A stretch of DNA of 64,000 bases from a virus (IMGVR_UViG_3300043205_000005:2532-66531); one strand, 5' to 3'; numbered from the stretch's first letter, positions 7,058-57,791 are shown. Notes: generated by a model from the letters alone, not told the origin. A program made the numbers and translations.

Positions 7058-7099
7058 GTCACGAGAGGGCCTTCGGGCTGACAGACCGGACTCGGTCAA
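7058..7099 (+). repeat. Bipartite element, long form
   Basis: GTCACGAGAGGGCCTTCGGGCTGACAGACCGGACTCGGTCAA; spacing between the two GTCA = 37. Confidence 0.9.
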
Positions 7100-7141
7100 C
7101 TATCCTCTGAGATTGGGTGACTAGACTGAGGGTTTGGGTGC

Positions 7142-8875
7142 ATGGCCGACGATGATGCAAATCTTCCTGCCGCTTACGACCTAGTCCCGGTCGATCACCA
7201 GCCGCAATTTGCCGACGCGCCTGTCCCCAAGGCCGGACAGACCGTGCAACAGCCCAACGTCATGGGCGATATTTCGGCAATGCCGGGGAAGGTCGCAAGT
7301 GCAGTCGGCGACGTAACCGGAGTCACGGAGGCAGTCAAAGCGGCACGCGGACAAATGACCCCAGAGGAAGCGCAGATGTTCGCGCTTGGGGCGTTGCCGA
7401 TGCTTGCGGGTGGACCGGAGGCGAAGGTTGCGAGCGAAGTCGCTTCCGATATTGCGCCAGCGGCAACAAAAGCTATTCGTGCTTTTCACGGTTCCCCCTA
7501 CGACTTCAACCAATTCGACCTGTCCAAGATAGGAACCGGAGAGGGTGCACAGGCTTACGGGCATGGGTTGTATTTTGCGGAGAATCCGGCAACCGCTCAG
7601 GACTATAAGAGCAAACTGTCTACGCTTGCCAATGTAAACGATAGTCCCGAGGCCAAGACGGCGCTGTACTATTTGCAGCAAAACAACTTCGACAAGGCGG
7701 CGGCGCGTGCCGACTTGGAAGGACAATTGAAACAAAAGCTGCCGGACAGTCATCCGCAAGTGCAGGCGATCAATAATTACGATCCCGGCAAAATGTACGA
7801 AGTCAACATCAACGCCGACCCCGAACATTTCCTCGATTGGGATAAGCCGCTGAGTGAGCATCCGCCTGAAATTCAAGACAAAGTTAAGCAGGCGATGGGG
7901 ATTGACTATTATGGCAAATACGATCCGCAGAAAGCAGAACGAGTGTGGAATCAGTTTGGTAAGGCGCAGGCGGGAACGGCAGTTAAGAACGGATTCATAG
8001 CGTTTAACGATGAGACTGTTGCGCAGCGTCTACGCGATGCCGGCATCCCCGGCATCAAATACCTGGATCAAGGATCGCGGGCAAATGCAGGTTGGCGGAT
8101 GCTGCCCCCTAGCGATAGCGTAAGCGGCAAATGGGTGGTTGGTCATGCGCCAAACGGGCCAAACCAATTTTTTGAAAACGAAGCCGAGGCGAAGGCGGCA
8201 TACGAGGCTGGACTACCCGCAACACAGACCCGCAACTACGTCGTATTCAACGACAAGCTAATCGACATCGTGAAGAAATACGGCTTGGCTGGTCTGGTCG
8301 CAGGCGGGGCTTCGCATTTTTCGACGGTGCCGGTGGACCATCAACCGGACTTCGGGGATAACCAGCAAGGCATGGCAACGGGTGGCAGGATCGACGGCGC
8401 CACAAGCATCAACCGCAGTTACGACGTGCCCTATCTCGCCGGATCATCGAACGACGACAAAACTGTTTACATCGACCGCCGCGTTCCCAAGCGAATAGCC
8501 GTCAAACGCGCGAACGGGAAAGGTTACGAGTCGATAGACCCTGCGGAATTTCTTGCGGAGCACGAGCGCGAAGAACACAAAGCCATGCGCGCCGGCAAGC
8601 CTTACGAGAAAGCGCATGTCGAGAATGGTACAGCAGCGGAGCGGGCAAAGGTCAAGGCGCATGGATTGGATTGGGACCATTACGAGGAAGTAATGGACGG
8701 TCTGTTGTCGCATATTGAACACGAACATCCCAAGCGACCTCCGCCGGACCTCTACAAAAAACCCTATCCTCACAACGAGGCTGTTTTGTTGAAGAGACTG
8801 GGTGACCGCGCTGAGTCTAAAAATATTCCGCGCGAGAATGAGTCAAACAAAAACGCAAAGGAACACCATGCCTAG
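7142..8875 (+). CDS. Polyvalent protein: ADP-ribosyltransferase-like domain plus HExxE/H metallopeptidase-like C-terminus
   Basis: AFHGSPYDFNQFDLSKIGTGEGAQAYGHGLYFAEN ... GIPGIKY ... RNYVVF (ART-PolyVal-like); C-terminal VYID...LAEHEREEH. Confidence 0.55.
   Translation: MADDDANLPAAYDLVPVDHQPQFADAPVPKAGQTVQQPNVMGDISAMPGKVASAVGDVTGVTEAVKAARGQMTPEEAQMFALGALPMLAGGPEAKVASEVASDIAPAATKAIRAFHGSPYDFNQFDLSKIGTGEGAQAYGHGLYFAENPATAQDYKSKLSTLANVNDSPEAKTALYYLQQNNFDKAAARADLEGQLKQKLPDSHPQVQAINNYDPGKMYEVNINADPEHFLDWDKPLSEHPPEIQDKVKQAMGIDYYGKYDPQKAERVWNQFGKAQAGTAVKNGFIAFNDETVAQRLRDAGIPGIKYLDQGSRANAGWRMLPPSDSVSGKWVVGHAPNGPNQFFENEAEAKAAYEAGLPATQTRNYVVFNDKLIDIVKKYGLAGLVAGGASHFSTVPVDHQPDFGDNQQGMATGGRIDGATSINRSYDVPYLAGSSNDDKTVYIDRRVPKRIAVKRANGKGYESIDPAEFLAEHEREEHKAMRAGKPYEKAHVENGTAAERAKVKAHGLDWDHYEEVMDGLLSHIEHEHPKRPPPDLYKKPYPHNEAVLLKRLGDRAESKNIPRENESNKNAKEHHA
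8802..8838 (-). repeat. Bipartite element, divergent variant
   Basis: GGTGACCGCGCTGAG shared exactly (15 bp) with the 37521 copy. Confidence 0.5.
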
Positions 8876-9116
8876 ACCAGAACTTTCAGGTGATCTATCG
8901 CGCGTCAAATCCATCGAGGCCGACGAAACGTGGCCATCACTTATCGAAATTGTCTGTTACTGGGGACCAAAAGACGCCCCGCGCAAAGGCCGCAGGCGCT
9001 CAACTGAAATCGACGCAGACCAATTCTTCGGCCGTGGCCGTTTTGGGGCTCCGATGTCCGGCGATCAACTTGTGGGAATCGTCAATAATCTGCGCAAACA
9101 GGGGCCGAAGTCTTGA
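8868..9116 (+). CDS. Hypothetical protein
   Basis: ATG at 8868 after AAAGGAAC, in frame with ORF 8802..9116. Confidence 0.5.
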   Translation: MPRPELSGDLSRVKSIEADETWPSLIEIVCYWGPKDAPRKGRRRSTEIDADQFFGRGRFGAPMSGDQLVGIVNNLRKQGPKS

Positions 9117-9171
9117 CGAAAGGTTAGGTGCGGAGTCAGGGTTTCTTACATCAAAGAATCAGGACCATCCC

Positions 9172-9438
9172 ATGACCCTCTCTGTCCTCTCGCTGTGGGT
9201 AGGCTTCGACAAATCGGTTGACGGCGCGGTTTTGGTGATAGCCAATAAGGGATTGCCTACAGAACAGCGGTGGGCGTTGGGGCCGTGGTGTGGGATTGAA
9301 GGTGCTCCCGAGATAGGCAGACGTGCAGCAAAGTTGTTACGGCGGGAATTGTTTGTTGATGACGTGCCCAGTCAGATTGAGGAAGGCGCGGAGCAGCTTG
9401 TCGAGTCCAGAACCAAAACGCAAAGATTCAATTCATGA
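9172..9438 (+). CDS. Hypothetical protein
   Basis: ATG at 9172 after CAGGA, in frame with ORF 8890..9438. Confidence 0.45.
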   Translation: MTLSVLSLWVGFDKSVDGAVLVIANKGLPTEQRWALGPWCGIEGAPEIGRRAAKLLRRELFVDDVPSQIEEGAEQLVESRTKTQRFNS

Positions 9439-9447: not shown

Positions 9448-9490
9448 GTCACGCGAGTCATCCGCGAACTGGAAGACCGGACTCGGTCAA
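9448..9490 (+). repeat. Bipartite element, long form
   Basis: GTCACGCGAG...GACCGGACTCGGTCAA; spacing 38. Confidence 0.9.
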
Positions 9491-10967: not shown

Positions 10968-11122
10968 CGCCAGAACTCATGGCCGAAATAGCCTCGAATA
11001 ATGGTCCCGATGTGGAGGCCATTATCGCCAAGATCGGAATCGCAACGCTGCTTGCGCTCGTGCCGAACTTCATGGCCATCGCAAAGACGGTGCAGGCACA
11101 TCAACCAACAAAGACCGTGTGA
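10964..11122 (+). CDS. Small hypothetical protein (52 aa)
   Basis: ATGA coupling to previous gene; stop TGA lies in a degenerate repeat element. Confidence 0.4.
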   Translation: MTPELMAEIASNNGPDVEAIIAKIGIATLLALVPNFMAIAKTVQAHQPTKTV

Positions 11123-11161
11123 CTTTCCGTGAGGCCAAGGACTTCTCCTATCTGGAATGAC
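11119..11161 (-). repeat. Bipartite element, degenerate variant
   Basis: CCGTGTGACTTTCCGT shared (16 bp) with the 28853 copy; ATGACACAAA at spacing 38. Confidence 0.5.
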
Positions 11162-11255
11162 ACAAACAAGACTCAATCTTAATCTGTGGTGTTGCAGGCA
11201 GGACACAACTTTATCTGTTAGGCGTATGGCGTAAACTTCAAACAAGGAGAACACC

Positions 11256-13498: not shown

Positions 13499-13540
13499 TT
13501 CACGATAGGTCCTTCGGGCTGAGGGACCGGACTCGGTCAC
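13499..13540 (+). repeat. Bipartite element, long form
   Basis: TTCACGATAGGTCCTTCGGGCTGAGGGACCGGACTCGGTCAC; spacing 37. Confidence 0.9.
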
Positions 13541-13559: not shown

Positions 13560-14423
13560 ATGAAACCGCTTTGCATCTATCACGGCGCTTGCGACGATGG
13601 CTTTGCGGCGGCATGGGTCGTGCGCAAGAGATTCCGCGATAGCGTCGAATTCTATCCTGGCGTTTATCAGAAAGAGCCGCCGCCGCATGAAGGTCGCGAC
13701 GTTGTGTTTGTCGATTTCAGTTACAAACGCCCCATACTTGACGCGATGGCCAGGTCAGCCAATTCGATTTTGATCCTGGACCATCACAAGACAGCGGCCG
13801 AAGATTTGGCGGATATCGCGCCCGCGCCGGATTTCATCGACTGGCGCGGCGCGGCGGCGATTGATGGCTCGGGAAACAATATGTTTGCGCTGTTCGACAT
13901 GAACCGCAGCGGTGCGGCAATGGCGTGGGATTATTTCATCGGTGGTTCGCGCCCCGACTTCATCGAATATGTGCAAGACCGCGATCTATGGCGCAAGGCG
14001 CTCCCGTGTGGCGATGAATTCACGATTGCGCTGCGTTCCTATCCGCAAGACTTTTTGATCTGGGACAAACTCGTTGACTCAGGTGCTCAATCTTTGATCG
14101 CGGAAGGCGGCGCGATACAGCGCTACTATCGTTTGCGCGTCGAAGAATTGAAGAAGAGTGCATATGCTGCCACACTCGACGGGCAAAATATCTGGATCGC
14201 GAACGCTCCATATTTTGCGGCAAGCGAAGTTGCGGGCGAACTGACTGAGCGCGACGGTACTTTCGGGGCTTGCTACTTCGAGGCCGAAGGCGGCCGTTGG
14301 CAATACTCGCTACGCTCTCGCGGCGATTTCGACGTAAGCGCCGTGGCGCGGAAATTTGGTGGCGGCGGCCACAAGGCCGCTGCCGGGTTTTCTGTCGATC
14401 AGCCCGCGCATACGAAACGGTGA
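13560..14423 (+). CDS. DHH/DHHA1 phosphoesterase (NrnB/nanoRNase-like)
   Basis: YHGACDDG, VDFS, LDHH, DRDLW, YSLRS, GGGGHKAAAG motifs. Confidence 0.85.
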   Translation: MKPLCIYHGACDDGFAAAWVVRKRFRDSVEFYPGVYQKEPPPHEGRDVVFVDFSYKRPILDAMARSANSILILDHHKTAAEDLADIAPAPDFIDWRGAAAIDGSGNNMFALFDMNRSGAAMAWDYFIGGSRPDFIEYVQDRDLWRKALPCGDEFTIALRSYPQDFLIWDKLVDSGAQSLIAEGGAIQRYYRLRVEELKKSAYAATLDGQNIWIANAPYFAASEVAGELTERDGTFGACYFEAEGGRWQYSLRSRGDFDVSAVARKFGGGGHKAAAGFSVDQPAHTKR

Positions 14424-14464
14424 CCGACATCCGGTCTTCTCAACCGGCACCTAGAGACCGTGAC
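14420..14464 (-). repeat. Bipartite element, variant C
   Basis: GTGACCGACATCCGGTCTTCTCAACCGGCACCTAGAGACCGTGAC; close to 31088-31131. Confidence 0.8.
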
Positions 14465-14838: not shown

Positions 14839-15167
14839 TGGACAGGGTAACGGCCTTCCTAACCGCCGCTTTCGCGGCTTTCACACCTATCAAGGACCAT
14901 CGCCCCCACCAATGGTGCGGCTGGCAAATGCGCCATGAGGTCGCAATCGATCCTGGCCCAGGGTTCAACTTGGCTAGGGCCTGGACGCGCTGGGGAAGCC
15001 CTACGCACGCGCATGTCGGCGCGGTGGTAGTGTGGCCGCACCACGTCGGCAAGATCGTCAGCGGCGATTGTGAGGGCGGGGCGTGGATGGTCAGGTCGGG
15101 AAACGATGGAGGGACGGTACGGACGCGATGCCTGTCCGTGCGCGGGGCGATTGCGTTTCGGGAGTAG
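14838..15167 (+). CDS. TIGR02594/CHAP-like cell-wall hydrolase
   Basis: WCG...ARAW..WG...GAVVVW..HVG...GND pattern. Confidence 0.55.
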   Translation: MDRVTAFLTAAFAAFTPIKDHRPHQWCGWQMRHEVAIDPGPGFNLARAWTRWGSPTHAHVGAVVVWPHHVGKIVSGDCEGGAWMVRSGNDGGTVRTRCLSVRGAIAFRE

Positions 15168-15185
15168 GCGGCGGCTAATCTTGCT

Positions 15186-15509
15186 TTAGTCGACCAGTTC
15201 GCGAATGCGTTTCGGTGCCAGCATTTCCTTGAAGATCGAAATATCAGTCTTGCGCTGTACGGCCGGCCGGAAACGCCTTCGATCGAACGGTGTTTCGGTG
15301 CCATCGTAATCAAGCGGCCTAACGATTTCATTTAGGAATAATCCGGGACGCTGCGTGTCCCAGCAGATACCAAATCCACGGATGGTATAAACTGCGCCGT
15401 TCTTTAGACCATCCATTTCGTTGATAACGGTGTAGCCGTTGATGACCTCCCCGCAGCGCGAGGGCGGCCCATCATTCACGCAAACCACCTTTTGCCCTAT
15501 CTGGAACAT
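15186..15509 (-). CDS. Hypothetical SH3-like protein (paralog A1)
   Basis: FQIGQKVVCVND...RKTDISIFKEML; paralog of 24217..24537. Confidence 0.65.
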   Translation of the reverse strand: MFQIGQKVVCVNDGPPSRCGEVINGYTVINEMDGLKNGAVYTIRGFGICWDTQRPGLFLNEIVRPLDYDGTETPFDRRRFRPAVQRKTDISIFKEMLAPKRIRELVD

Positions 15510-15523
15510 AGGCTAGCCTCCTG

Positions 15524-18500
15524 CTAACTTGTCTTTAATGCGCCCTTGGCGATGTCGCGAATGCCCTTGAGGCAATGCCTCCCCATGCTCGCACTAAAGG
15601 CGTCCAGTGTCATTCCGTTGGCCGTGAGTAGCTGGTGCGCCCGGTGGCATTCTTCTGGCGAAGGCTCATGAAAAACGTCCATAGGATAAGCATCGGCCCA
15701 TTGGACAATGCGCTGTAGGGCTTCGATTAGTTCTTCGCAGCGTTCGCACATCCTACTAACTCTTGTTTAATCCCCGGATTGCTTCCGCGTGCTTATCGCT
15801 ACCTTGAGCAACGCGACGATGTGGCACCTTCTTATTGCCGCGCATGGCTGTCAATTCCATCGTCGTGTATTCAATGTCAGCCGCCGCGATCTTGGCTGCT
15901 TCCTCTATCGCTGCATTCCATCCGGCATCAAACCCGGCTATTGCTGTTTGATTGTCCATGGTATTCTCCCGACAGTTCTCTTGTTAACCGGCCTTCGCTT
16001 CCGGTTCATACTTTGCCTTGAGGCGCGCTAAATCGTCTCGTTCCTGTCGCTCAATCTCAGCGTTACGCTGATCTTCAGCATCCCACTCAGCTTCATACCA
16101 AAGGCTCATTGCCTTTCCGTGCTGGTCCTCAATCCATTTTGCGAAGCGTTCGGGGATGCTGTCGCTCCAATTAAGATTGCAATCGTGCTTTACCTCATGG
16201 CCGTGCATCGAAAATTCAATCTTGATGCTGACCCGGTGGTCGCCCATCATCATTCCCCTGCATATTGGCCATTAGTCGTCTTGTGTGGGCGCCATTCTCC
16301 GCGATTTTCAACGACGCCATCGTGAGCGTCAGATATAACCCAAAAGTCATATAGACGTAGTTCCCAATGACCCGGCGAAAAATAATGACGGAGTTTCACT
16401 GGGGCGGCTGGACACATAACTTCGGTGATGATGTGCTCGCTCATGGGTATAATCGGCTAATCGCTTATTTCTCGGCAAACGCACCGGATCGTTTGATTAT
16501 CTTAATGGCCTCGTCCATGAGTGCCTTCTCCTGTTTGTCGTCAAGGAAGCGCATTGCGTGGCGAAACCACTTCCTCTTGCATAGAGCGGCGTGGAGCTTA
16601 ATCCATAGTTCTATTTCTTTAGCGTCGCTCATTTGCCGCTCCCGACATCCTGCTCATTAACAGTTTTTTTCCACCGCTCGTGTTCGGCTACGATCAACGC
16701 CTGTTCTGCCATCTGGCAATATTTTTCGTGAAGCTCGGCATCGAGTGGCAGTTCGTGCGGGGCAAACATGAACTGCTCCATGCAGTCCACAGCAGCCCAT
16801 ATTTCTTCTCTGCTCGGCATGTTCTTCCTGCTGTTCAGGGAACAGTCGCCACCCGCAGCGAAGCGGGGAAGTCGTCAAGGTCGAGCGTTTCCTTCGAGCG
16901 CAACACTTGCCGCGCACCATCAAGAGTGAGCCAGAAAAGATCATCGCCGCCTAGGCCCTTCGGTTTCTCGCGCCGCACAGCGTCGCCAAGGGCAACCATG
17001 GCCGTCCATTCGTCATAGTCGTTGTGGCCAGGACCGGCAGTGAAATAGTTGCGGTACGAACGATTCCGCTTATTTGGAAGGCCGAGCGCGTGCCGGGCTA
17101 GATCGATCTGTTTTTGGTTCATGAATTTCTCCCGCCTATCTCGGCGTATGTCGTTTTCAAAACGGACCAGCATTGTTCACAAGGCTAATGATTAAGTCAG
17201 CCGCCGCCTCTTTCTCGACAGCCTTGCCCCATATGGCCGCTATCTTGCGCCCCGTCGCATCGGTCAAATAAATGTCGCCGCCGCCGGAAGCGTTAGTGCC
17301 CACCCATGTCCAATCCCAAGGGCGCGGATGGGCATCGCGGATCAAGTCTTCTTCGCTTCTCGACATAGTCATCGTCAGTCGCCTATTGCTGGAAGTGATT
17401 TATCGAGCTTCCTGATTTCGGCGGCGCAAATTCGCGTGGCTGCCTGACCGCTTTCACTTGGGACCAACTTTGTTTCAGCACCGAGCACATAATAGAACGC
17501 ACTGTGTTCAAGCGTCGTAGCTGCCGCTTCGAGGGCGGCGTTCCACCCTCTGGATTCCGCGTGTGCGATGGCGAGTTCTTCGGCGGTCATGTTCTGCCTG
17601 CTGTTGGGGGTTTAGTCGTCCAATTCCGAGCAAATATCTTGTACGGTCACGCGGCTGCGCCAAAGGTCTTTTGCCCATTTCTCAATCATCGGCCATTTTT
17701 GCTGTGGGTGTCCCGCTCCTATTGCCCACGTATTGTGTTGTCGTTCCGCAACGATTTCGACGGTCTGCATAATCTTTTTGATCGCGGCTTGATTGGTCAT
17801 GGCTGTTGATGTGATGTTTGTGCCTATGCGACGCCAATCCAGATGATTCCAGCCCCGAAGAAAATACCGGAGGCTAGGTCGCGCGCACCAAAGAGCATCG
17901 CAATGCCACCGGCAAGTAGAACGAAACCAAAAGATACCTTGTGTCCGGTTGTCGGGAAATGTCTTTGGAGATACGTCATAGCTGCTCTCTACTGATCACT
18001 CTGGATTTTCACAAAGGGCGGCGCGCTCGGTAGCGCGAATGGCAGCACGCGCATAGTGTTCGCAGCGGCATCTGCCGTCCAGTGCAGGACAGCCATCGCT
18101 CAGATCGCAACTGCGTTCCTTTGCTATCGCCTGGGCCGCCATTTCGAGTTGGGCGCTGGTCATCGTGATTGTTCCTGCATTGGACGGGTTAATCGGCCGC
18201 TTTCTTTAGCGCGCGGATCGAAATATTGTAGCGGTGACCTTCAAGTTCGATGTCGATGTCGGCTTGTCCAAAGCCGATGCCGCCGCCCACCATCTTCGCG
18301 CCCTTGGCTTCACAGGCGCTTTGTACCCAAGCGCGCATATTGAAGGCCGGTTCGATTTCATCGGCACTGTCGAAGCCGAGGGGCTGTTCGCCAGAAATCA
18401 TCGGGACACCCTCTGGCATATTGATCGGGATAGTCGCGGTGCTGCCATTTTCAAGCACTTCGATAGCTTCACGCATAAGCTCCGCTGCCGCCCCGTAGTT

Positions 18501-19569
18501 ATCGTCGCCAGCGCGCTCCGCGTTTGCGATCCAAGCCTTCATGTCGGTGACGATTGCCATCTAAATCTCCATGCTGTTCGGCGGTTAGTCGGGCACGCAA
18601 TTGCTGTGTACGTCATAACCGGGCGGTTCGCCGTAATTGGCGAAATGGCCCTCTCCGTCCTTGATTGGTTCGCCGCACCTTTCACAGGTCACTATGAAAT
18701 GGGTGTCTATCCGGCGGCACCCCGCATGGCGAAGTGCTCCAATAATGAGGTCGCGGTCGGCGACGCTCAAATACGCAGGGCGGCAGATGTCTGTGAGGCC
18801 ACCCTGAGGGTAGTGATGCTGACTGACGGGCGCGCTCTCCAAGAACGCAATTAAAGTCTCAAGGTGTTTTGTGCTGATCTTTGCCATGCTAACGTCCTGT
18901 TAACCGCCGGTTTCCAATTCGTCCTTAATCCAAAGGACGATTTTGATTAACTCCGCATCCGACACTTTCCCGAACAGAAGAACGAATCCGAGATTGTGTA
19001 TAAGACGGCGGCGGTATCGTTCGCGCTCGGTCATGTCGTCTCCGCTGTCTCGCAAAACAGATCGGGCACAGGCTGCTTTTCCTTTTTGCGTCGCGGTTCC
19101 TTCCGCGTCCTTGGCAATCCCGGCGGCTTTGCTTCCGGCACTAAATGCGAGGGCAGTTGGCGACGGTAGCGCCACGCTAGAATTTCCAGATAGTGACGCT
19201 GGCGCAAGCTGATTTCATGCTGCGGAAGCAAGTCGGCGGTCGCGGCGGCGTCGGTGATAAACCGCGCGCCCACCCAGCCCGAGCAGCGATTGAGCGCCTT
19301 CGCAAGTTCAATTTCGTGCGGTGTCATGCTTTTGGCTTTCCGCTTCCACCTTGCAGCACTTCCAAATCGCGCCGAACGTGGACGCCACGATAGGTACGCA
19401 CGTAAAAATCGCTGTCCTTTGCCGCTAAGATTGCTTCCGCGTCTCTCTTCATCAATTCGGCTCGGTCCCGAAGTAGGGCAATCATTTCCGGGACTGTCTT
19501 GCGTCCCCAATCTGCATAGCCGGACCCAAAGCGGCCGGGCAGGTTGATGGCAGTCATCCTCTCGCTCAT
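15524..19569 (-). other. Run of small leftward hypothetical phage CDSs
   Basis: Tightly packed ORFs with RBSs: 15524-15751, 15756-15959, 15984-16253, 16250-16444, 16629-16820, 16835-17122, 17157-17372, 17375-17590, 17612-17800, 18189-18560, 18585-18887, 19031-19327, 19324-19569. Confidence 0.55.
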
Positions 19570-19753
19570 AATCCTAATCCTCGGCACGCAGCACGTAAGT
19601 ATCCCGCGCGCATGATCGAAACCGGGCGTATCGGGCACGGACCTTTTGTTCGGCCTCGGCTTGTGATGTCGCATGAGTAGCGGCCGCTTCCGCAAGCGGC
19701 TGGCCGTCACGAAAACGATCAAAGGTCCATTCTCTCATCGCACGTTTCCCCGA

Positions 19754-20371
19754 TTAACCCCGTGTATGTGCCTGTTTGGCGATCTCGATCAGCAAATTCC
19801 GAAACTCAATCGGCGTTCCCGCGCGCTGGTTCTTCGATAGGCGCTGACACGCGCCGGTCTTGATCGCTCGAGCGCGTTCCTCGGCCGAGTGAAAGCCGTC
19901 ATCGAGGCGCACGAAATCTCCCGGCGCCGAACCCCAGCGCAGCGACGGTAACTCGACGCCGTTGGCATAGAGCCATGTGGCTTTGCGAGCTCGGTGGCCA
20001 TACCAGCCTTGCTCGACACAGCAAGTCCAACCGCCTTCCCAATCTGCCATGACCCAGCCGCCGGCTCGAGGCGGCACATTGAGATTGAACGCGCGCCAGG
20101 CGTGGCTTCCTTCCGGGTGCTCGAGCACGCCGCCCCAGCGCCGCACAGAGGCCAGCGCCGCGGCAAAGCAGCCGTCGTCGTCGCCCAACTTCAACCGCGG
20201 CCATGTGCTCGGCGCACCGCCCCAATAGCGTCCCCAGCGTTCGCACGGGGGATGTGCCACAACGGGGTGTGCGCCGGGATAGGCTCGAGCGTCGCGCGCC
20301 TTGTCCCATGGTTCTACGTCCGGCAGCCCGGCATAGACACCCTTGGGTTCAACGAATAGCGCGGCGATCAT
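19754..20371 (-). CDS. C5-cytosine methyltransferase-like protein (short/divergent)
   Basis: AHPPC (PC catalytic motif), VLEHP (ENV-like), GHRARKATWLY; ATG at 20371. Confidence 0.45.
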   Translation of the reverse strand: MIAALFVEPKGVYAGLPDVEPWDKARDARAYPGAHPVVAHPPCERWGRYWGGAPSTWPRLKLGDDDGCFAAALASVRRWGGVLEHPEGSHAWRAFNLNVPPRAGGWVMADWEGGWTCCVEQGWYGHRARKATWLYANGVELPSLRWGSAPGDFVRLDDGFHSAEERARAIKTGACQRLSKNQRAGTPIEFRNLLIEIAKQAHTRG

Positions 20372-20396
20372 TGTGTAAATCCCGACATACGACGCA

Positions 20397-20609
20397 TCAG
20401 CGTCTACGTTCTCGATCACTGATTTCTCGCGCCGCATCCCGCACAACGTCGGTAGAAACCTCGGGGTGAAAGATCGCCATGAAGCCCTGAAAGGCTAGGG
20501 CCTCCGAACCAGCGCGACTGTGAAGAATCGCGCGAGCCGCGCGTACCCGTTCCATCTGCGACGTGCCCGGTAGTTTCTTGGCTAATGCAAATTCTGGTTT
20601 TTGTTTCAT
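20397..20609 (-). CDS. Hypothetical protein
   Basis: TGATG-coupled start inside the 44-bp repeat copy. Confidence 0.45.
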   Translation of the reverse strand: MKQKPEFALAKKLPGTSQMERVRAARAILHSRAGSEALAFQGFMAIFHPEVSTDVVRDAAREISDRERRR

Positions 20610-20649
20610 CACGCCACCTTCTCGCTGCTCTTTTCCATCCGCATCCGCT
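20606..20649. repeat. 44-bp direct repeat, copy 1
   Basis: TCATCACGCCACCTTCTCGCTGCTCTTTTCCATCCGCATCCGCT, identical to 20851-20894. Confidence 0.95.
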
Positions 20650-20857
20650 ACCAAACGCGCTTGATCTTGCCGTAAGGCGTTCCGTCGGATTGACAGTAGC
20701 CAATCCATTGGAGTACCCGAATGATCTCATCGCCTTCGATGCCGAGCATCCGGCAGGCTTTCACAGATCGCTTTGCGGCTGTATCGGAGCACTTATTGCG
20801 CTGGCTTTCGCGCATAAGCTCAATCATCGCGTCGGCCTTGTTTGCTATCGTCATCAC
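20648..20857 (-). CDS. Hypothetical 69-aa protein between the direct repeats
   Basis: ORF exactly spans the interval between the two 44-bp copies. Confidence 0.55.
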   Translation of the reverse strand: MMTIANKADAMIELMRESQRNKCSDTAAKRSVKACRMLGIEGDEIIRVLQWIGYCQSDGTPYGKIKRVW

Positions 20858-22058: not shown

Positions 22059-22060
22059 GT

Positions 22061-43252: not shown

Positions 43253-43253
43253 G

Positions 43254-43598: not shown

Positions 43599-43599
43599 C

Positions 43600-44439: not shown

Positions 44440-44459
44440 CTTTAAGTCGGTGCGGATTG

Positions 44460-44491
44460 TTGACCGCACCGTAGTCCCTGTCTCTCGTGAC
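44460..44491 (-). repeat. Bipartite element, short form
   Basis: TTGACCGCACCGTAGTCCCTGTCTCTCGTGAC; spacing 27. Confidence 0.85.
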
Positions 44492-44526
44492 CCAAATCTG
44501 AACTGTTCAACTTCGCGTGTTTTAGG

Positions 44527-44760
44527 ATGGCAACCCAGCAACCCTCTGCGGTACGCTTTTTCGCGGTCGATCACCCTGCGGTGGCGGGGACGGTTCGTGA
44601 GCGGCTTGAGAAACGACGTAAGGATTTGGTTGAAGAACTAGCCTTTGCGAAAGACTGGGGTGACTATTCGCGCCGCGCTGGTCGTCTGGAAGGCATCGAC
44701 AACGCTATTCAGCATTGCATTGACGTTGAAACCGAATCGCAGGAAAGAAACAGAGAATGA
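44527..44760 (+). CDS. Hypothetical protein
   Basis: DWGDYSRRAGRLEGI; typical small gene before GroES-like genes. Confidence 0.55.
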   Translation: MATQQPSAVRFFAVDHPAVAGTVRERLEKRRKDLVEELAFAKDWGDYSRRAGRLEGIDNAIQHCIDVETESQERNRE

Positions 44761-45209
44761 GCGTTACTTCCGTCCGCAAACTCTCCGACATCGCCGAAGC
44801 CATCGGCAAAGGCAAAGACGCTAGGACCGTTCTGGTTGATGCGATCGGCAAGGACAATATCGAAAGTTTCGAGCCTTTTCACAATCTGATTCTGATCGCA
44901 ACTTACGTGCGTTCCGACATGACGAAGGGCGGCATTATCATCGGTGGTGACCGAACGCGCGCCGAAGATCGTTTCCAAGGTAAGATCGGGATGGTTCTCA
45001 AGGTTGGTCCCACGGCGTTCAAAGGCAAGACGCCGGAGAGTTTTGGCGGCGTCACGGTCAAAGCCGGCGACTGGATCATGTATAAAGCGTCGGATGCTCA
45101 TGAGTTTTTTTTCGTGGATGAAAAGTCCGCGCTCGATGGCAGCTCGTGCCGACTGATCGAGGATACGCTGGTGATGGGGCGGGTGGCTGATCCGGAGAGT
45201 ATTTTCTGA
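44757..45209 (+). CDS. GroES/Cpn10-like co-chaperonin
   Basis: TKGGIII...GMVLKVGP..VKAGDWIMY. Confidence 0.75.
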   Translation: MSVTSVRKLSDIAEAIGKGKDARTVLVDAIGKDNIESFEPFHNLILIATYVRSDMTKGGIIIGGDRTRAEDRFQGKIGMVLKVGPTAFKGKTPESFGGVTVKAGDWIMYKASDAHEFFFVDEKSALDGSSCRLIEDTLVMGRVADPESIF

Positions 45210-45586
45210 TGGCTGATTCGGGTCACGATAGTCCTGCGGTTGTTGATAGACCGGACTCGGTCAACAATCCTTATACAGACCGGCTTATTGCGCTCGGTCG
45301 AAGCGTGGATAAGGATATGGCTAAGGCGTCCATCGACAAATGCAACTGCATGATCCGTTACGCTCATATGGATACGCAGTTGCCCGCGATCCGAAAGGGG
45401 AAGGAGTTCTTTACGCCCGAAGGCTATGCGATAATTCCGCCGAACAGCTTTGAGGATATGGACTATCGCGCGATTCATAATCTCATGAAATCACGCGGGG
45501 ATGAGTATATTGGGCATATGTTTGCGCCGCTGCCGGCGGTGACCGCCCCGGAATCACCAACCTCTCGTGACACAAAAACTTCCTGA
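45209..45586 (+). CDS. Hypothetical ORF spanning an inverted-element cassette
   Basis: TGATG-coupled; both elements read in frame (HDS..RPDSVN; VTAPESPTSRD). Confidence 0.5.
   Translation: MADSGHDSPAVVDRPDSVNNPYTDRLIALGRSVDKDMAKASIDKCNCMIRYAHMDTQLPAIRKGKEFFTPEGYAIIPPNSFEDMDYRAIHNLMKSRGDEYIGHMFAPLPAVTAPESPTSRDTKTS
45222..45264 (+). repeat. Bipartite element, long form
   Basis: GTCACGATAG...TGATAGACCGGACTCGGTCAA; spacing 38. Confidence 0.9.
45539..45571 (-). repeat. Bipartite element, short form
   Basis: GTGACCGCCCCGGAATCACCAACCTCTCGTGAC; spacing 28. Confidence 0.9.
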
Positions 45587-45589
45587 CGG

Positions 45590-46579
45590 ATGGCACCAAT
45601 GGCTGACGACGAAATCGTAGTCGAAATCGAAAAAGAGGAACCGGAAAAGAAAGCCGGCGAGCAAACAACCGACGTTGCCGATGCACTCAAGGTGCAGTTG
45701 ACGGAACTGCAAGCGGAAACGGCGCGGGAAAAATCCGACAGGCTTGCCGCACAACAGAGGGAAACCGCGGCAACGCAGCGGGCGGAAGCCGCACAACGTG
45801 AAGTCGCGGAGACGCGCACGGAAATTACCGAAACACGCCTTGGGACAGTCGAACAAGGTTTGTCCGCCGCTCAATCTGCCTCCGATGCTGCAAAGACCGA
45901 ATACAAAGCCGCAATGGAGGCTGGCGATTGGAACAAGGCGGCAGAAGCACAGGAAAAACTCGCCGATGCCCGCTCAACTCTTGGGCGCCTCACGGAAGCC
46001 AAAGCTGATCTTGAAGTCCAGAAAAACCAACCGCAGCGGCGTGAGCAGAGAACCGAAGCGTCGCAGACTCAAGCTGATCCGGTCGAAGCATTTATCCAAG
46101 GTCGCGATCCCGGAACGCAGGCGTGGTTGCGCGAACATGCCGACGACGCAAGGGCGCTTGCGCTTGATCCGCAAGGCCGCCGGGCCGCAAAACTCAATGC
46201 CGCCGATTCGGACGCGCGAGCGGAAGGGCTTAAGCCTGGCAGCGGTGAATACTTCGACCACGTCAACAAATTCTTGGACGTTACAAAACCCAACGGCAAA
46301 ACCGCAAACGGCAACGGACAGACTCAACGCCGCGCTGCATCGGCACCTGTGGCGCCCGTCGCAAGTTCTGCCGGCGGGGTGAGTGGAGGGACGGAAGTGA
46401 GATTGTCAGCGCGTGAAGCGCGGTCGGCCACGGATGGCACCTTGATTTGGAATTATGATGATCCGTCCGGACAAAAGCGATTCAAGAAAGGCGATCCGAT
46501 TGGCGTCCAGGAAATGGCGCGGCGGAAATTGGCGCTGAAAGAAAGTGGGCAGTACGACAAGTCATTGACTGAGCAGTAG
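45590..46579 (+). CDS. Scaffold-like coiled-coil head protein
   Basis: Acidic N-terminus, long coiled coil; position between portal and capsid. Confidence 0.55.
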   Translation: MAPMADDEIVVEIEKEEPEKKAGEQTTDVADALKVQLTELQAETAREKSDRLAAQQRETAATQRAEAAQREVAETRTEITETRLGTVEQGLSAAQSASDAAKTEYKAAMEAGDWNKAAEAQEKLADARSTLGRLTEAKADLEVQKNQPQRREQRTEASQTQADPVEAFIQGRDPGTQAWLREHADDARALALDPQGRRAAKLNAADSDARAEGLKPGSGEYFDHVNKFLDVTKPNGKTANGNGQTQRRAASAPVAPVASSAGGVSGGTEVRLSAREARSATDGTLIWNYDDPSGQKRFKKGDPIGVQEMARRKLALKESGQYDKSLTEQ

Positions 46580-46581
46580 TC

Positions 46582-47100
46582 ATGACCCCGACTCCCGTCA
46601 AACGAACTGATCCGTTCGAGTTTCCGAAGCATATGGTGCCGCTCGGGTTGACCTATCAATGGTCGGCTGAAAAGGTAGTGGGCGAACCCAATACTTTTCA
46701 CAAGGCACTCCTCGACGCTGGTTGGATGCCGGTCCCGGCACAGTGGCACGCTCCCTATCCGGTGAGGGTGAAGGGAAATGTCCTACTTTGTCACGCCCAG
46801 GCGCGCGATGAGGAAGCCGAACGAATTGCCGGTACGGAAAAGAACGTCGAAAACTGGCGACAGAATTTTGGTGAATTCTCTGGCGGTGTGAGGATGCAAC
46901 AGCAGACCGCAGACGCCGTGAGCGAAGTCAAAACGATTCCGATGGGCGATCCCGGCTTGGCAAAAAAGATTATGCCACCATTCGTTCCGGAACTGCCGCC
47001 CACTCCGCGCGAACTGATGCCGCCGCCGCCCAAGGTTATTGTCCAGACGAAATCATGGTTGCAACGCCTTCATAATTTTTTTTCAGGAGAATACCGATGA
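46582..47100 (+). CDS. Head-module hypothetical protein (paralog B1)
   Basis: DPFEFPKHMVPLGLTYQW..GWMPVPA. Confidence 0.55.
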   Translation: MTPTPVKRTDPFEFPKHMVPLGLTYQWSAEKVVGEPNTFHKALLDAGWMPVPAQWHAPYPVRVKGNVLLCHAQARDEEAERIAGTEKNVENWRQNFGEFSGGVRMQQQTADAVSEVKTIPMGDPGLAKKIMPPFVPELPPTPRELMPPPPKVIVQTKSWLQRLHNFFSGEYR

Positions 47101-47714
47101 ATGAAGAACCGGAAACCGATATGCTGGACGACAGTGCGCCCGCGCGCCGAGGCCGCCCCCGCGGTAGCCGCAATCAACCGCGCGATCCGGTGCGCAGCGG
47201 TCCGCGCGTCTATCAAGGCCGCGACGGCGAAGAACTTTCGCGCCCGCGCAAGAGCGGCCTAGACCCGTTCTTCGTCCCGAAGAACTTTCCGCCCGAAGGT
47301 TGGGAATATCAGTGGTGCGCAACCGCCGCTGTGGGAAACAAGGAAGTCGTTCGCTCGCAGAATATCGAGTTTTTTCAAAACGGATGGCGTCCTGTTCCAG
47401 CAAAGCGCCATGACGGTTTCTTCCTGCCGAAAGGCGAAGATGGTCCGGTCATTGTGCGCGATCAAATGCTCATGGAGCGCCCCTCCGAAATGTGCCAAGA
47501 CGCACGCAACGAGGATCAGCGCAACGCGATCCAGCAAATGCGCGACCGTGACGAATCGTTGATGGGCGGCAAAGCCAATCTGAAAAACTCGATGCGCGAT
47601 GGCATTGAAATGGGTGGGAAATATCGCGGGACAGGCGGTAACTTGCGGATGTCGATCGATCCGGCGCTGGATGTTCCGATGCCGTCTCACAAGCTGGCCG
47701 AACCGGGCGAATGA
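47097..47714 (+). CDS. Head-module hypothetical protein (paralog B2)
   Basis: DPFFVPKNFPPEGWEYQW..GWRPVPA. Confidence 0.6.
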   Translation: MNEEPETDMLDDSAPARRGRPRGSRNQPRDPVRSGPRVYQGRDGEELSRPRKSGLDPFFVPKNFPPEGWEYQWCATAAVGNKEVVRSQNIEFFQNGWRPVPAKRHDGFFLPKGEDGPVIVRDQMLMERPSEMCQDARNEDQRNAIQQMRDRDESLMGGKANLKNSMRDGIEMGGKYRGTGGNLRMSIDPALDVPMPSHKLAEPGE

Positions 47715-47874
47715 GAATGAGGGAAGGTTATGAATGGTGTGATATTTTATTGGATGTTCCCCGTTGGATTATTGTTACTGTGTTTTCGAAATATGTTGCT
47801 GGGGAAATACGGGAAATATTTCGACGCGAGGAACCTGCGACCAAGAACAAAATTCTTTCTTACCGAAAACTCCG

Positions 47875-47907
47875 TTGATCTCACCGCAATCACCAACCTC
47901 TCGTGAC
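47875..47907 (-). repeat. Bipartite element, short form
   Basis: TTGATCTCACCGCAATCACCAACCTCTCGTGAC; shares AATCACCAACCTCTCGTGAC (20 bp) with the 45539 copy. Confidence 0.85.
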
Positions 47908-47911
47908 CTAA

Positions 47912-48829
47912 ATGAAACTGCTTATCTCTCTCGCCACGCGCAACCGCCCGCAAAAACTCCTGTCCACAATCCGGCAGTCCATCGCCAATTGGACTCATCC
48001 GAACACGGAAATGATTCTCCAAGTGGACGCGGACGATTACGCGACGCTCGGCATTTTGACCGAAACCAAACTCGATCCGCGCGTAAAGGTGAACATCAAC
48101 AAACGCGAAGACACCATCGCGGAAAAGTGGAATCGCGCGATGAAAGAACCGGCGGACGTTTACATGATTGGCGGCGATGACGATCCGGTGGTGACGCAGG
48201 GTTACGATTCAAAAATCCTTGACGCTGAGCAGTTGTTTCCTGACGGAATTGGCATGGTCTACGGCCATATGTCGAATGCCTCTTTTTCATCGATCATGTG
48301 CCCCACGCGAAAGTGGGTGGAAAAACTCGGCTACATCCTTCCGGAGTATTTTCCGTATTGGTTCTGCGATCATTGGATTGATGATATTGGGCATATGACG
48401 GGGAGAATCGTTCATGCCGATGTTCGGAGCGATCAGCGCAAGGTTGGTCAGACGCAGGAAATGCGCGAGCCGGCTTGGTGGGCCACATGGTTTGATGCCG
48501 CGGTGATGTTGCGGCGGCAAGAGGCTATTGGTGTCATCGATCATCTTGGCGAAGATGCCCTGCACAAAGCTCGGCTACAAACCAATTATCTCCGCGTCGA
48601 ATATCGTTCGAAATGGATCAACGATAATGTCCGCGCGCAAGCGCGCGGGCTTGAGGCGATGGCGTCGGCAAACTCTCTCAAGGATGAAAGGTATTTGCGC
48701 GTGAAGGAAAAGGCCGTGGCGTTAATTCCGAAGATGCTTGAGGGGATGGAGCCGCAGCAGGCCAAGGTGTTTCACGATTTGTTGGTTGTGCCGGATAAGA
48801 TTTTGTCGTTTCCGCGGGCGTTTGGGTGA
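47912..48829 (+). CDS. Glycosyltransferase (GT-A/GT2-like)
   Basis: LISLATRNR..QVDADD..GGDDD..WFCD. Confidence 0.7.
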   Translation: MKLLISLATRNRPQKLLSTIRQSIANWTHPNTEMILQVDADDYATLGILTETKLDPRVKVNINKREDTIAEKWNRAMKEPADVYMIGGDDDPVVTQGYDSKILDAEQLFPDGIGMVYGHMSNASFSSIMCPTRKWVEKLGYILPEYFPYWFCDHWIDDIGHMTGRIVHADVRSDQRKVGQTQEMREPAWWATWFDAAVMLRRQEAIGVIDHLGEDALHKARLQTNYLRVEYRSKWINDNVRAQARGLEAMASANSLKDERYLRVKEKAVALIPKMLEGMEPQQAKVFHDLLVVPDKILSFPRAFG

Positions 48830-51216: not shown

Positions 51217-51361
51217 ATCAATTTTGTGAACAACTCTCGTCTGCATTTCAGTTGCCATGCGGCAATGCGTTTGGACTTACCGTTCTCTTTGTGTTGGCGT
51301 TTTTCGGAGTTGGATTGTGTTGGTGGTTTGTTCTGACGAATGATTATGAACGGGACCGCCG

Positions 51362-51865
51362 ATGACTGCCGTATTTCGCAACATCGGCCCGCTCATCGAA
51401 GTGGACGACGCTACAATCGACATGCTCATTGAAGCTGCGGGCACAGAGCCCAAGCGCCGCGCTAGGCTCAACTTGCACAATTCGGACGATGATCTGTTGC
51501 ACGAAATGATCATCGCTTTCCGCAAGGATTCGCTGAACATGCCGCATCGGCATGTGGGTAAGAGCGAGTCGATGCACGTGATTCGAGGGCGTGTCGTTGT
51601 GATTTGCTTCGATGATGCCGGCAGTCCCACGCGGCGAGTAACGCTTGGCCGCGATCCCCTTCAAACAAAATGGGGACCGCAGGCGCCGATAGTCTTCCGC
51701 ATGGCCGCACCAATCTGGCATACCGTGATTCCGCTTGATGACGTGGTCGTGGTTCACGAAACCACCAACGGCCCGTTCGTGCCTGGACATAATATGGAGA
51801 TTCCGCCATGGGCGCCGCAGGAGAATGAACTTGCGGCGTGGGTGGAAGCGTTGAGGGCTGTATGA
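51362..51865 (+). CDS. WbuC-like cupin-fold metalloprotein
   Basis: RARLNLH..LHEMIIAF..PHRH..ESMHVIRG..WHTVI..ETTNGPF. Confidence 0.8.
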   Translation: MTAVFRNIGPLIEVDDATIDMLIEAAGTEPKRRARLNLHNSDDDLLHEMIIAFRKDSLNMPHRHVGKSESMHVIRGRVVVICFDDAGSPTRRVTLGRDPLQTKWGPQAPIVFRMAAPIWHTVIPLDDVVVVHETTNGPFVPGHNMEIPPWAPQENELAAWVEALRAV

Positions 51866-53727: not shown

Positions 53728-53770
53728 GTGACCGAGTCCGGCGCCAATCCCACGAAGGCCCTCTCGTGAC
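53728..53770 (-). repeat. Bipartite element, long form (reverse)
   Basis: GTGACCGAGTCCGG...GAAGGCCCTCTCGTGAC; spacing 38. Confidence 0.9.
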
Positions 53771-56084: not shown

Positions 56085-56121
56085 TTGAACAGCGCAACAC
56101 AACGAGGCTTCGGAGAATCCG

Positions 56122-57408
56122 ATGGCTGAAACCAACTTCCGAGGCCCCCTGAACGCGATAGGTTCTCTTGAAGTCGAAGCGGGCACCGCCGCGACGATTG
56201 AGCCTTTTGACGGGCCCAGCGGCTTCTATCAGACAATAGCGATGCTCGATCCGCGTTCGGCACCCTTTGCGAAGGATGGTACGAGTCCAGGCCGGGCGCC
56301 AGCCTTTCTCGCCAATCCGGATTTTTGGGCATGTGATAACAAGCCGCAAGCTACGAACGCGACCTGTCTTGCGGCTTCGGCTGTACAGACGAGCTTGGTT
56401 GCGATGCCATTGGCGACGACTCAGGTCTCGAATCCGAACGCGGGTTCTCCGTTTATCGCGGTTGGTGTTCCGATTCTTCCTCAAGGGACCACGACTATCG
56501 TCAACGTGATTGCGTTGGATTTTGGGTTTTCTACCGGGACCACGACGGCAAATTCTTCGACGGTTGCGGTTTACGATTCGACCAAATTCACGCAAGGTCA
56601 GTGGATTTGCATTGGCGGCGCTGGAGCGGCGAACCAAGCGAGTTTCTTCACGCAGGTTCAGTCGATCGGGACGTCGAATACCACGACGATCACAGTTGCT
56701 CCGCTTCCGCCTGCCGCTTCCTCTTCGGCGCCGATTGGGCAGGCCAATATCTTCGGTGCGGGATTGTATCCGCCTGCGACGCAGTTTGGGCCATCGGCGG
56801 TTGCGGCGACTTATCACAGTCCGAATATCCAAGCTGGGCTGTTGAGGGTGCATAATTCCGCCGAGACCTTGGCGCGGAACGTTTCGGTTACGCTCGCGAC
56901 GGGTGGTGTTGCGACGGTCGTGACGTTCCTTGTGTCGGGTTACGACGTGTGGCGCGCGCCCATGACTGAGCTTATCTCGGTTCCGGCCACGACTTCCGCG
57001 ACCACGGCATATGGACAGAAGGCGTTCAAGTATATTGCCTCTGTCACGCCGCAGAGTGCTTCGACGGGTGGAAATTCCTACGCTGTCGGTATCGGTGATA
57101 CGTTCGGATTTCCGTTCCGTGCCGATGAATGGGAACAAACCAATAGTTTCTGGGCGGGTACTGCTTCGGCAAATTCTACCGGATTCACGGCTTGTGCGAC
57201 TGCGGTCCCTGCTACCAATACGACTGGTGACGTTCGGGGTACGATTCAGGTTGGTGCTGCCGGCAAAGGTTCGGCTGTTACTGGCACCCTGTCTGCTAAT
57301 GGAACGTCGCGGCTTGCGCTGATCCAGAATCTTGGAATTTGGAACGTTGTGTTCGGGACTCCCAACAATACGGTGCCGATGTTCGGCGTCGCACAATCCA
57401 CGACTTGA
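56122..57408 (+). CDS. Virion structural protein
   Basis: MAETNFRGP start typical of post-MCP genes; Thr/Ser/Ala-rich. Confidence 0.55.
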   Translation: MAETNFRGPLNAIGSLEVEAGTAATIEPFDGPSGFYQTIAMLDPRSAPFAKDGTSPGRAPAFLANPDFWACDNKPQATNATCLAASAVQTSLVAMPLATTQVSNPNAGSPFIAVGVPILPQGTTTIVNVIALDFGFSTGTTTANSSTVAVYDSTKFTQGQWICIGGAGAANQASFFTQVQSIGTSNTTTITVAPLPPAASSSAPIGQANIFGAGLYPPATQFGPSAVAATYHSPNIQAGLLRVHNSAETLARNVSVTLATGGVATVVTFLVSGYDVWRAPMTELISVPATTSATTAYGQKAFKYIASVTPQSASTGGNSYAVGIGDTFGFPFRADEWEQTNSFWAGTASANSTGFTACATAVPATNTTGDVRGTIQVGAAGKGSAVTGTLSANGTSRLALIQNLGIWNVVFGTPNNTVPMFGVAQSTT

Positions 57409-57423
57409 TAGGAGGCCGTTATC

Positions 57424-57750
57424 ATGAGCGGAAAATCTCGTTTACAGCGCGCCAAAGGTGGCCGCACTGGTTTGGTTGCATCTGGGAATCCGGATGTGAT
57501 CAAGGAGGCCGAAGGCAAAGAAGAATACGCCAAGGGAGATGAAAGAAAGCGCGGCGGTCGTGCCAAGAAAAAGAACGGTGGTAAGGTCATTGGGCTCATG
57601 ACTGGCGGTGGTGTGAAACCTCGGCTGGATCGTCCTGGTCGCAAGCGTGGTGGGGCTGTGGGAGCGGATAGGTCTCCGCTGTCGAGTGCTCATTCTCATG
57701 CGAAGGCTGGGTCGGCTCCTGCGGAGGAAGAAGGCGGAATGCCGGATTAG
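57424..57750 (+). CDS. Basic GG-motif protein
   Basis: Five xxGG motifs; stop TAG overlaps a repeat element. Confidence 0.55.
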   Translation: MSGKSRLQRAKGGRTGLVASGNPDVIKEAEGKEEYAKGDERKRGGRAKKKNGGKVIGLMTGGGVKPRLDRPGRKRGGAVGADRSPLSSAHSHAKAGSAPAEEEGGMPD

Positions 57751-57791
57751 TCACGAGGCGTCCTTTGGGCTGTGAGACCGGACTCGGTCAC
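57750..57791 (+). repeat. Bipartite element, long form
   Basis: GTCACGAGGCGTCCTTTGGGCTGTGAGACCGGACTCGGTCAC; spacing 37. Confidence 0.9.

Follow-up and report, generated by a model that had tools for sequence, protein, structure and literature searches.

A dispersed two-box repeat of soil phages as a candidate boundary signal for accessory-gene cassettes

What role might be played by a short bipartite sequence that is dispersed throughout a phage genome and fitted closely between its genes? The question is raised by the stretch IMGVR_UViG_3300043205_000005:2532-66531 (hereafter the window), which takes in 64,000 of 66,531 bases of a virus record made up of one contig, nearly the whole genome, and holds 22–26 copies of a repeat with the two boxes TTTGnGTCACGAGAG...CGGTCAmC. 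The record derives from soil metagenomes, is complete in two runs, and none of the listed runs was of RNA. The copies are polar, tend to face one another in pairs, fall into homologous subfamilies, occur in phages with unrelated backbones, and remain at orthologous positions while the genes between them are replaced. Our preferred explanation, held tentatively, is that they constitute DNA-level boundary or docking arms for accessory-gene cassettes which are exchanged by recombination between co-infecting phages; that recombination occurs within the arms during co-infection is inferred from these patterns. Below, relatives are designated G0xx (genomes) or L0xx (loci), and L alone denotes the long form of the repeat.

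The two-box family is not a product of chance. The 13-mer CCGGAYTCGGTCA, with at most one mismatch, has 11 matches in the window against 0.25 expected, a number reached in none of 100 shuffles, and a two-box position weight matrix (PWM) with free spacing yields 25 matches against 0–1 across 20 shuffles. At orthologous sites the boxes are near-invariant although the adjoining genes have drifted to 65–85% identity; both chance and a decaying relic are ruled out as the origin of the family, and the view of the initial annotation that this is no decaying repeat is supported. The spacing in GTCACG-N-GGTCA is bimodal, with N=20–21 for the short form S (seven copies) and N=29–33 for L and a diverged form L' (12 copies), and outside these classes the scanned range of 8–49 contained just one stray match each at N=24 and N=44. 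Among 153 copies from relatives the PWM gap is 10–12 or 18–23, bar three isolated odd-gap matches, and a quantum of about 10 bp separates the two classes; that the boxes thereby keep a common helical phase, as suggested initially, would follow from geometry alone. The two quantised lengths reported initially therefore hold, and the ten long and eight short copies listed were all recovered with their positions and strands; the list was incomplete, missing two long copies (3225–3265 on the plus strand and genome position 1990). The additional subfamilies noted at that time (14421/31089; 8802/37522/43262; 11119/28857) are diverged relatives which share a TTTG..TCA outer end and a GTCAC inner end, giving the types L', v1 and v2 beside L and S. 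The conserved unit is longer than had been described and takes in roughly (A)AGATTTTGG ahead of the left box and ACGnTC behind the right one, about 45–60 bp in all.

Two simple origins for this conservation were rejected. L copies are translated at the gene terS, yet with lengths of 40–42 nt they differ in the reading frame that connects the boxes, and stop codons are present in several of them, so that conservation acts at the nucleotide level. The right box includes GAnTC with a free N, which recalls a CcrM site, but GANTC occurs 252 times in the genome against 244 expected and is neither depleted nor unusual in any other way.

The sequence between the boxes, described initially as variable, is far from random. 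L middles belong to a few sequence types, such as GGGCCTTCGGGCTGA, GGACAACGCGAACTGAGAGA, TTTGTTTGTTCTTTGCCG and TTTGTTAGTTTGC, that recur at unrelated positions within and between genomes, and 100 non-orthologous L pairs differ at no more than four of 17–19 middle positions, compared with 0.1 in shuffles. The copies are therefore homologous repeats. Duplication, transfer or gene conversion of whole units would explain this sharing, which independent binding sites would not need. The suggested two-site signal for protein binding or recombination still names the best class of explanation; it has to be amended in that the copies are repeats spreading between unrelated phages and not merely independent sites.

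The strict L pattern was found at 60 loci on about 30 IMG/VR contigs from soil. Among 185,579 prokaryote genomes (one per species) it occurred on five contigs alone, all from metagenome-assembled genomes (MAGs) of mutually inconsistent taxa and only one of them alphaproteobacterial (Pseudolabrys); these matches are probably mis-binned phage DNA. The family is phage-specific and essentially absent from host chromosomes, which disposes of a host repeat and leaves the proposed Hyphomicrobiales host unsupported. Copy number varies widely between phage genomes, the PWM detecting none in G002 and G004, 1 in G013, 3 in G014, 5 in G007, 6 in G001, 13 in G011, 14 in G008, 17 in G009, 23 in the source phage, 24 in G016 (a record 61% complete) and 28 in G012. 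G009 has its 17 copies yet shows just three weak protein matches to the source phage, and G001 shares with it part of the early region and no structural genes, all six copies lying in or immediately beside the part of the record with the shared genes. The repeat family thus crosses phage backbones. A close annotated relative of the source phage is absent from the phage collection, where DNA comparison gave only short terminase matches. Soil contigs aligned to the window represent mostly cross-mapping repeats and contigs of related phages; the presence of such relatives in the same soil runs is counted in favour of exchange. In the literature, the box sequences matched only unrelated primers, and a keyword search on phage intergenic repeats around accessory genes gave nothing relevant.

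Each arm is polar, with outer end TTTGnGTCACGAGAG and inner end CGGTCAmC, and copies favour inward-facing pairs. In 12 genomes, 28 of 40 facing neighbours (inner ends inside) lie within 1 kb and five within 100 bp, compared with 13 of 40 and none for outward-facing neighbours, while tandem neighbours never lie within 100 bp. A chi-square on the inward and outward 1-kb counts is about 11, and the same pattern was found in the loci. The closest pairs are head-to-head S/L composites of about 100 bp with 4–17 nt between the inner boxes; they form imperfect palindromes, in which the arms are complementary at the boxes alone. The window carries nine inward-facing pairs enclosing 134–1917 bp: 7058/8851, 9448/11166, 13499/14464, 28381/28903, 29130/31131, 35791/36056, 40658/40865, 43262/43583 and 45222/45571. 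The individual copies are as follows.

Genome position 1990: L copy just upstream of the window
3225–3265, plus strand: L copy inside the open reading frame (ORF) for a 1045-aa DNA-ejection protein (1549–4686)
7058–7098, plus strand: L copy upstream of the ART-like gene 7142–8875; left arm, paired with 8802–8851
8802–8851, minus strand: v1 copy, TTTGTTTGACTCATTC..CAGCGCGGTCACC; right arm
9448–9489, plus strand: L copy; left arm, paired with 11119–11166; orthologues in L005, L008, L015 and L035
11119–11166, minus strand: v2 copy, TTTGTGTCATTC..GGAAAGTCACAC; right arm
13499–13539, plus strand: L copy 20 nt upstream of the DHH phosphoesterase gene 13560–14423; left arm
14421–14464, minus strand: L' copy with spacing 33; right arm of the DHH cassette
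25681–25720, plus strand: L copy between the minus-strand genes HNH (25209–25658) and DnaQ-like (25695–26333)
28381–28412, plus strand: S copy; left arm of the 28.4-kb cassette
28857–28903, minus strand: v2 copy; right arm of the 28.4-kb cassette
29130–29171, plus strand: L copy; left arm of a 2-kb variable block
31089–31131, minus strand: L' copy with spacing 32; right arm, overlapping the stop codon of the endonuclease-like ORF 30506–31105
35791–35831, plus strand: L copy at the 5' end of terS
36026–36056, minus strand: S copy; closes the 266-bp terS cassette as its right arm and is translated as the new N-terminus of terS, VTEPESQPLVT
37522–37570, minus strand: v1 copy; similar copies in G008 and G016
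39944–39975, plus strand: S copy immediately behind the stop codon of terL; 2 nt past the inner end the cargo ORF begins
40658–40699, plus strand: L copy; left arm of a 208-bp cassette with ORF 40716–40880
40834–40865, minus strand: S copy; right arm of the 208-bp cassette, with the ATG of the next gene (40870) after the outer end
43262–43309, plus strand: v1 copy; left arm of the 43.3-kb cassette
43552–43583, minus strand: S copy; right arm of the 43.3-kb cassette
44461–44491, minus strand: solo S copy; orthologues in L019, L037, L052 and L053
45222–45263, plus strand: L copy; left arm of a 350-bp cassette with ORF 45209–45586
45540–45571, minus strand: S copy; right arm of the 350-bp cassette
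47875–47906, minus strand: S copy whose right box, GAGATCA, is weak; beyond the outer end comes the ATG of gene 47912
53729–53770, minus strand: L copy
57750–57790, plus strand: L copy 25 nt upstream of gene 57815–58078

The copy at 3225–3265 has matching copies in L060 (mapped near 3240) and in G008 (51347–51386, unmapped and taken as orthologous from its sequence), and it is tolerated within the gene and apparently conserved.

The intervals enclosed by the nine pairs hold genes for ART-like, peptidoglycan-binding, DHH phosphoesterase and endonuclease-like proteins and several small ORFs of no assigned function, and the interiors of pairs bear no relationship to one another. In all nine intervals the cargo ORFs are absent, replaced or sporadic among relatives, unlike the structural genes, which recur in all four relatives from the same structural lineage (G008, G011, G012 and G016). 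At L017:8114-8767, on the minus strand, a NusG-like ORF constitutes the cargo between two L arms.

Several junctions can be followed through alternative states. At the terS junction five phages share an orthologous L, with locus-specific variants such as GGATTCGG. Three of them (L030, L053 and L031) carry no cargo and translate L within the N-terminus of terS; in the window and L023, unrelated ORFs come after the L, and beyond them a near-identical, anti-oriented S provides terS with a new N-terminus. The junction behind terL lacks any element in L030; in L031 an S fits flush between stop codon and following start, in the window and L053 the S is accompanied by one ORF family, and in L041 it is accompanied by an unrelated ORF, every cargo ORF beginning 2 nt past the inner end. 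The 28.4-kb cassette, S plus one gene, is missing in L033, where the v2 arm is kept. The junction at 45.2 kb exists in four states, namely nothing, an ORF only, an ORF with an anti-oriented L, and L plus ORF plus S, and its three ORFs are mutually unrelated. An empty site is represented by contigs from the source soil which link an L inner end to the inner end of the S at 43552, 15 nt apart. Homology-block ends are polarised in the same sense. Among 25 that fall within 12 bp of an inner end, 24 belong to blocks that come in from the outer side, cross the arm and break off at its inner end, and one block alone passes from the cargo through the arm; since the arms are alike, BLAST will extend through whichever owner is aligned, and this 24:1 polarity is supportive and not decisive.

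These observations are consistent with a mechanism along the following lines. Two arms face each other with their inner ends inside, the space between them being either empty, as in the composites of about 100 bp, or occupied by 0.1–1.7 kb of non-core ORFs. When related or unrelated phages co-infect one host, cargo could be swapped through recombination in the 40–60 bp arms, and this might happen in either of two ways. The arms may offer short stretches of homology to the recombination functions of phage or host; their length lies within the range used by phage single-strand-annealing systems. Alternatively, they may be the split halves of a pseudo-palindromic site on which a sequence-specific nuclease or recombinase acts in trans, an attractive possibility. 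Direct repeats would permit loop-out of the cargo, whereas arms that are inverted and non-identical (L and S, differing by 10 bp) would allow replacement without it. The arms also suit tight gene packing, their inner and outer ends lying at or near stop and start codons.

Inward-facing pairs and 100-bp composites are also what a non-autonomous transposon with terminal inverted repeats (TIRs) would produce, resembling miniature inverted-repeat transposable elements (MITEs) or mobile insertion cassettes (MICs). L, S and v copies would then be the ends, empty composites the MITEs and ORF pairs the cargo versions, with a transposase supplied in trans. The short-range enrichment of inward pairs is as expected for terminal inverted repeats, and subfamilies, variable copy number and spread into unrelated phages would all fit; the bipartite ends of 40–50 bp are reminiscent of the two-domain inverted repeats of some transposon families. 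However, among 37 pairs screened at offsets 0–15 for duplications of 3–9 nt, no combination of offset and length recurs in at least three pairs, as target-site duplication would require, and the inverted repeat ends about 6 nt outside the outer box. No transposase was found among some 45 ORFs of the window and 10 cargo ORFs scanned against Pfam, PHROGs and NCBIfam, a set that left out small ORFs and the host. Moreover, arms stay at orthologous junctions while the cargo differs, interiors are mutually unrelated and many solo copies are well conserved, and we consider a transposon an improbable but serious rival.

The fit of the copies to gene boundaries bears on whether they act as regulatory sites. 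The gene layout, taken from an ORF model and the family scans mentioned above, is as follows.

1549–7049: ejection proteins
15186–29677, minus strand: early block encoding the HNH protein, a DnaQ-like exonuclease, an exonuclease-like protein (with neighbouring genes at 26494–28249) and a recombinase-like protein that is very divergent
20854–21876, minus strand: the recombinase-like ORF
36022–36738: terS
38132–39937: terL
41009–43252: portal, followed by the plus-strand late operon

The copies fit between genes with codon-level tightness. On the outer side a co-oriented upstream gene usually ends 1–12 nt before GTCACG, or else an opposite-strand gene begins within 0–35 nt; the outer CAAA is often directly adjoined by an ATG. 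On the inner side a Shine–Dalgarno (SD) sequence and a start codon follow in about 40% of the L copies examined (43/107), mostly at about 18–27 nt, and at other copies an opposite-strand gene ends in the TGA of TGACC; read in reverse (GGTGACC), the inner box provides a TGA stop or a GTG start. L copies follow no orientation rule, 47 being co-oriented and 38 anti-oriented with respect to genes, and S copies are predominantly anti-oriented to transcription (24 against 7). The minus-strand early block (15000–29700 of the window, and relatives) has nearly all its copies on the plus strand, namely 15 of 16 L and all 8 S.

Operator or roadblock sites would account for part of this pattern. A phage- or host-encoded protein would bind the two boxes at two helically equivalent spacings and silence or insulate accessory genes or transcription units, and sites paired inwards would permit looping around a cassette. 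Near-invariant boxes within diverging flanks, the 10-bp quantum, positions that are strictly intergenic or at gene ends and often beside start codons, and the strand biases of S and of the early block all point in this direction, and the lack of a conserved fold (see below) favours recognition of duplex DNA. Against it, copy number ranges from 0 to 28 among phages alike in size and layout, non-orthologous copies share middles that a binding site does not need, L lacks an orientation rule and no candidate binder is common to the element-bearing phages. A host regulator should also have sites of its own, contrary to the absence of the strict L pattern from prokaryote chromosomes. On balance we regard operators as an unlikely but serious rival. 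The various explanations are partly compatible with one another, as a regulatory motif may double as a recombination linker; such a dual role has been proposed for the PeSL motifs of T4-type phages.

Start codons that abut the ends, and composites that are imperfect palindromes, could also indicate a role at the RNA level, in which L/S pairs form long-range or local stems in polycistronic mRNA that serve processing, protection or translation coupling, and an RNA-binding protein attaches to single copies. The co-oriented S of L031, flush with the next start, shows, by eye, an SD-like GGAG and a short GTG-started ORF whose TGA overlaps the ATG. In an S variant at L051:240-420, L051:3325-3505 and L022:5260-5440 the segment GAGAGG is flipped to CTCCCTC, so that, in anti-orientation, an SD-like GAGGGAG precedes the downstream ATG by about 11 nt. 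Nevertheless, RNAalifold applied to 10–61 aligned copies per class of S and L, on both strands, detected only a CCG/CGG mini-hairpin of 3–4 bp (0 to -4 kcal/mol) with a stem that never varies, and the complementarity of composite arms is confined to the boxes. Given also that the orientation of L to transcription is not fixed and that a cmscan of the whole window on both strands gave no Rfam match, a function in RNA appears quite improbable.

That the copies are promoters, read by an RNA polymerase or sigma factor of host or phage, could be suggested by the 43 of 107 L copies that lie about 18–27 nt upstream of a co-oriented SD sequence and start codon. Almost half of the L copies and most S copies, and nearly all in the early block, point against their flanking genes, and a spacing change of 10 bp is incompatible with -35/-10 geometry. 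No sigma-70 promoter or intrinsic terminator was predicted at any of the 16 copies in 28000–47999, where the numbers of sites equal those in shuffles, and the roughly 45 ORFs of the window that were scanned yielded no gene for an RNA polymerase or sigma factor. Promoters are therefore very improbable, and the initial statement that the repeat was not recognised as a known promoter family stands.

If the arms are read by a protein, as the near-invariant short boxes and strict two-class spacing argue, a partner might be encoded by the phages themselves. The recombinase-like gene at 20854–21876, put forward initially, is absent from G009 (17 copies), G013 and G014 and truncated in G007, G010 and G015; its absence from G009 means that it cannot be an obligatory partner. 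The ORF has a weak PHROG integrase match alone and no match in Pfam, NCBIfam or PDB. In the three genomes with truncated forms only the first 25–30 or so and the last 25–30 or so codons match, 0.5–1.5 kb apart, such that the ends appear to be kept and the interior replaced. Two other candidates were rejected: the HNH gene at 25209–25658 is present in the element-free G002 and absent from G009, and the NusG-like cargo gene occurs in L017 alone, with no counterpart in the window or other loci. The sole protein common to all genomes with at least six copies, including G009, is a nucleoside 2-deoxyribosyltransferase-like enzyme (31579–32154 on the plus strand of the window), and its gene looks like cargo and not like a partner, since in the genomes checked a copy is located no more than about 1 kb away.

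A number of points weigh against cassette boundaries that are exchanged by recombination. Homology-block ends favour inner ends over ordinary gene boundaries by a factor of only about 1.7, ORFs are gained and lost also at junctions without any element, and about half of the copies are solo. In L066 a small ORF has been inserted between L and the DHH gene with no extra arm, and ORF 40716–40880 (MKFSDEVAPGIRMEYGPDVWKRGHDITIV...) has a homologue at another junction, before the capsid leader at L024:740-1150, where no arms are recognisable by eye. The strand bias of the early block is not predicted by a cassette model, nor is it explained by any model considered. Plain homologous recombination leaves the near-invariant boxes and the restriction to two spacings unexplained; no arm-specific nuclease, recombinase or transposase was found, no phage protein other than the above nucleotide-metabolism enzyme is universal among the element-bearing genomes, and no recombination event was directly observed.

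A stronger version would invoke a phage-specific system of cassette exchange, in which unequal inverted half-sites (L and S) are read by a putative dedicated nuclease or recombinase and the ORFs between them are copied or moved between co-infecting, even unrelated, phages. We think this unlikely, and see a modest chance that a new mechanism underlies the repeat family.

Comparison with known systems helps to place the repeat. PeSL cassettes of T4-type phages also have short conserved motifs flanking small optional ORFs in plastic regions, where modular shuffling by recombination has been proposed. The PeSL unit, however, is a sigma-70 early promoter with a stem-loop in direct orientation, whereas the present repeat has no promoter-like match and no conserved stem-loop, and its arms are inverted and occur genome-wide, including the late operon. 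MITEs and MICs likewise consist of inverted terminal arms around nothing or around passenger genes, with many copies and subfamilies and no transposase inside; here there is no target-site duplication, arms are kept while cargo changes, the arms are unequal (L and S) and they are confined to phage genomes. REP, BIME and REPIN elements share the intergenic location in both orientations, often as inverted doublets, and the existence of length classes (BIME Z1/Z2), but a single REP is a hairpin and neither S nor L folds, the present repeat is not found in host chromosomes and no RAYT-like gene was seen among the ORFs scanned.

The likeness to integron attC sites lies in the composite, which is imperfectly palindromic, conserves its outer and inner boxes, has an unpaired asymmetry and varies at its centre, and in the promoterless cassettes. 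Integron cargo, however, is located between successive attC sites of the same orientation, whereas here it lies inside the palindrome, between its halves. No IntI-type integrase was found, the sole recombinase-like gene being without a Pfam or NCBIfam match and missing in G009, G013 and G014. Stoperators of Cluster A mycobacteriophages and the C1 operators of P1 resemble the repeat in forming sets of at least 20 asymmetric sites scattered at phage gene boundaries. Those sites measure 13–17 bp, have one spacing only, follow the direction of transcription and are associated with a known repressor, in contrast to the 45–60 bp, two spacing classes, inward pairs and homologous middles seen here, for which no repressor was identified. 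By analogy, the repeat would seem to work most like PeSL cassettes, MICs or BIME-type doublets. It is not a member of PeSL, MIC, BIME or attC, since the promoter and stem-loop, the target duplication, the hairpin units in hosts, and the attC array with IntI, respectively, are lacking.

Phage genomes are mosaic, and the sequence signals that set the entry and exit sites of accessory genes are known for very few lineages. The present family is clearly defined and easily searchable, it marks variable junctions in a group of uncultured soil phages, it recurs in phages of otherwise unrelated gene content, and its polar build with two lengths and inward-facing pairs is unusual. Should the arms be recombination signals, they would make modular exchange among environmental phages open to testing in concrete terms, and might also yield short, portable arms with which to engineer such phages; should they be operators, they would reveal a genome-wide regulatory scheme common to several phages. 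A dedicated exchange system, if real, would be homing- or integron-like with its cargo in a split site, and would represent a new class of mobile-DNA mechanism shaping the accessory genomes of soil phages.

The window also contains a second, unrelated dispersed repeat of about 70 nt (TTGTTAG..TGGCTACCTTGGC..CGATTGTTCTG..GCCATAGAGG), for which folding gave no signal. Its copies at 33806–33880 (plus strand) and 34236–34320 (minus strand) form an inverted pair around ORF 33875–34234, and more copies occur in G001, G007, G008, G010, G011 and G015.

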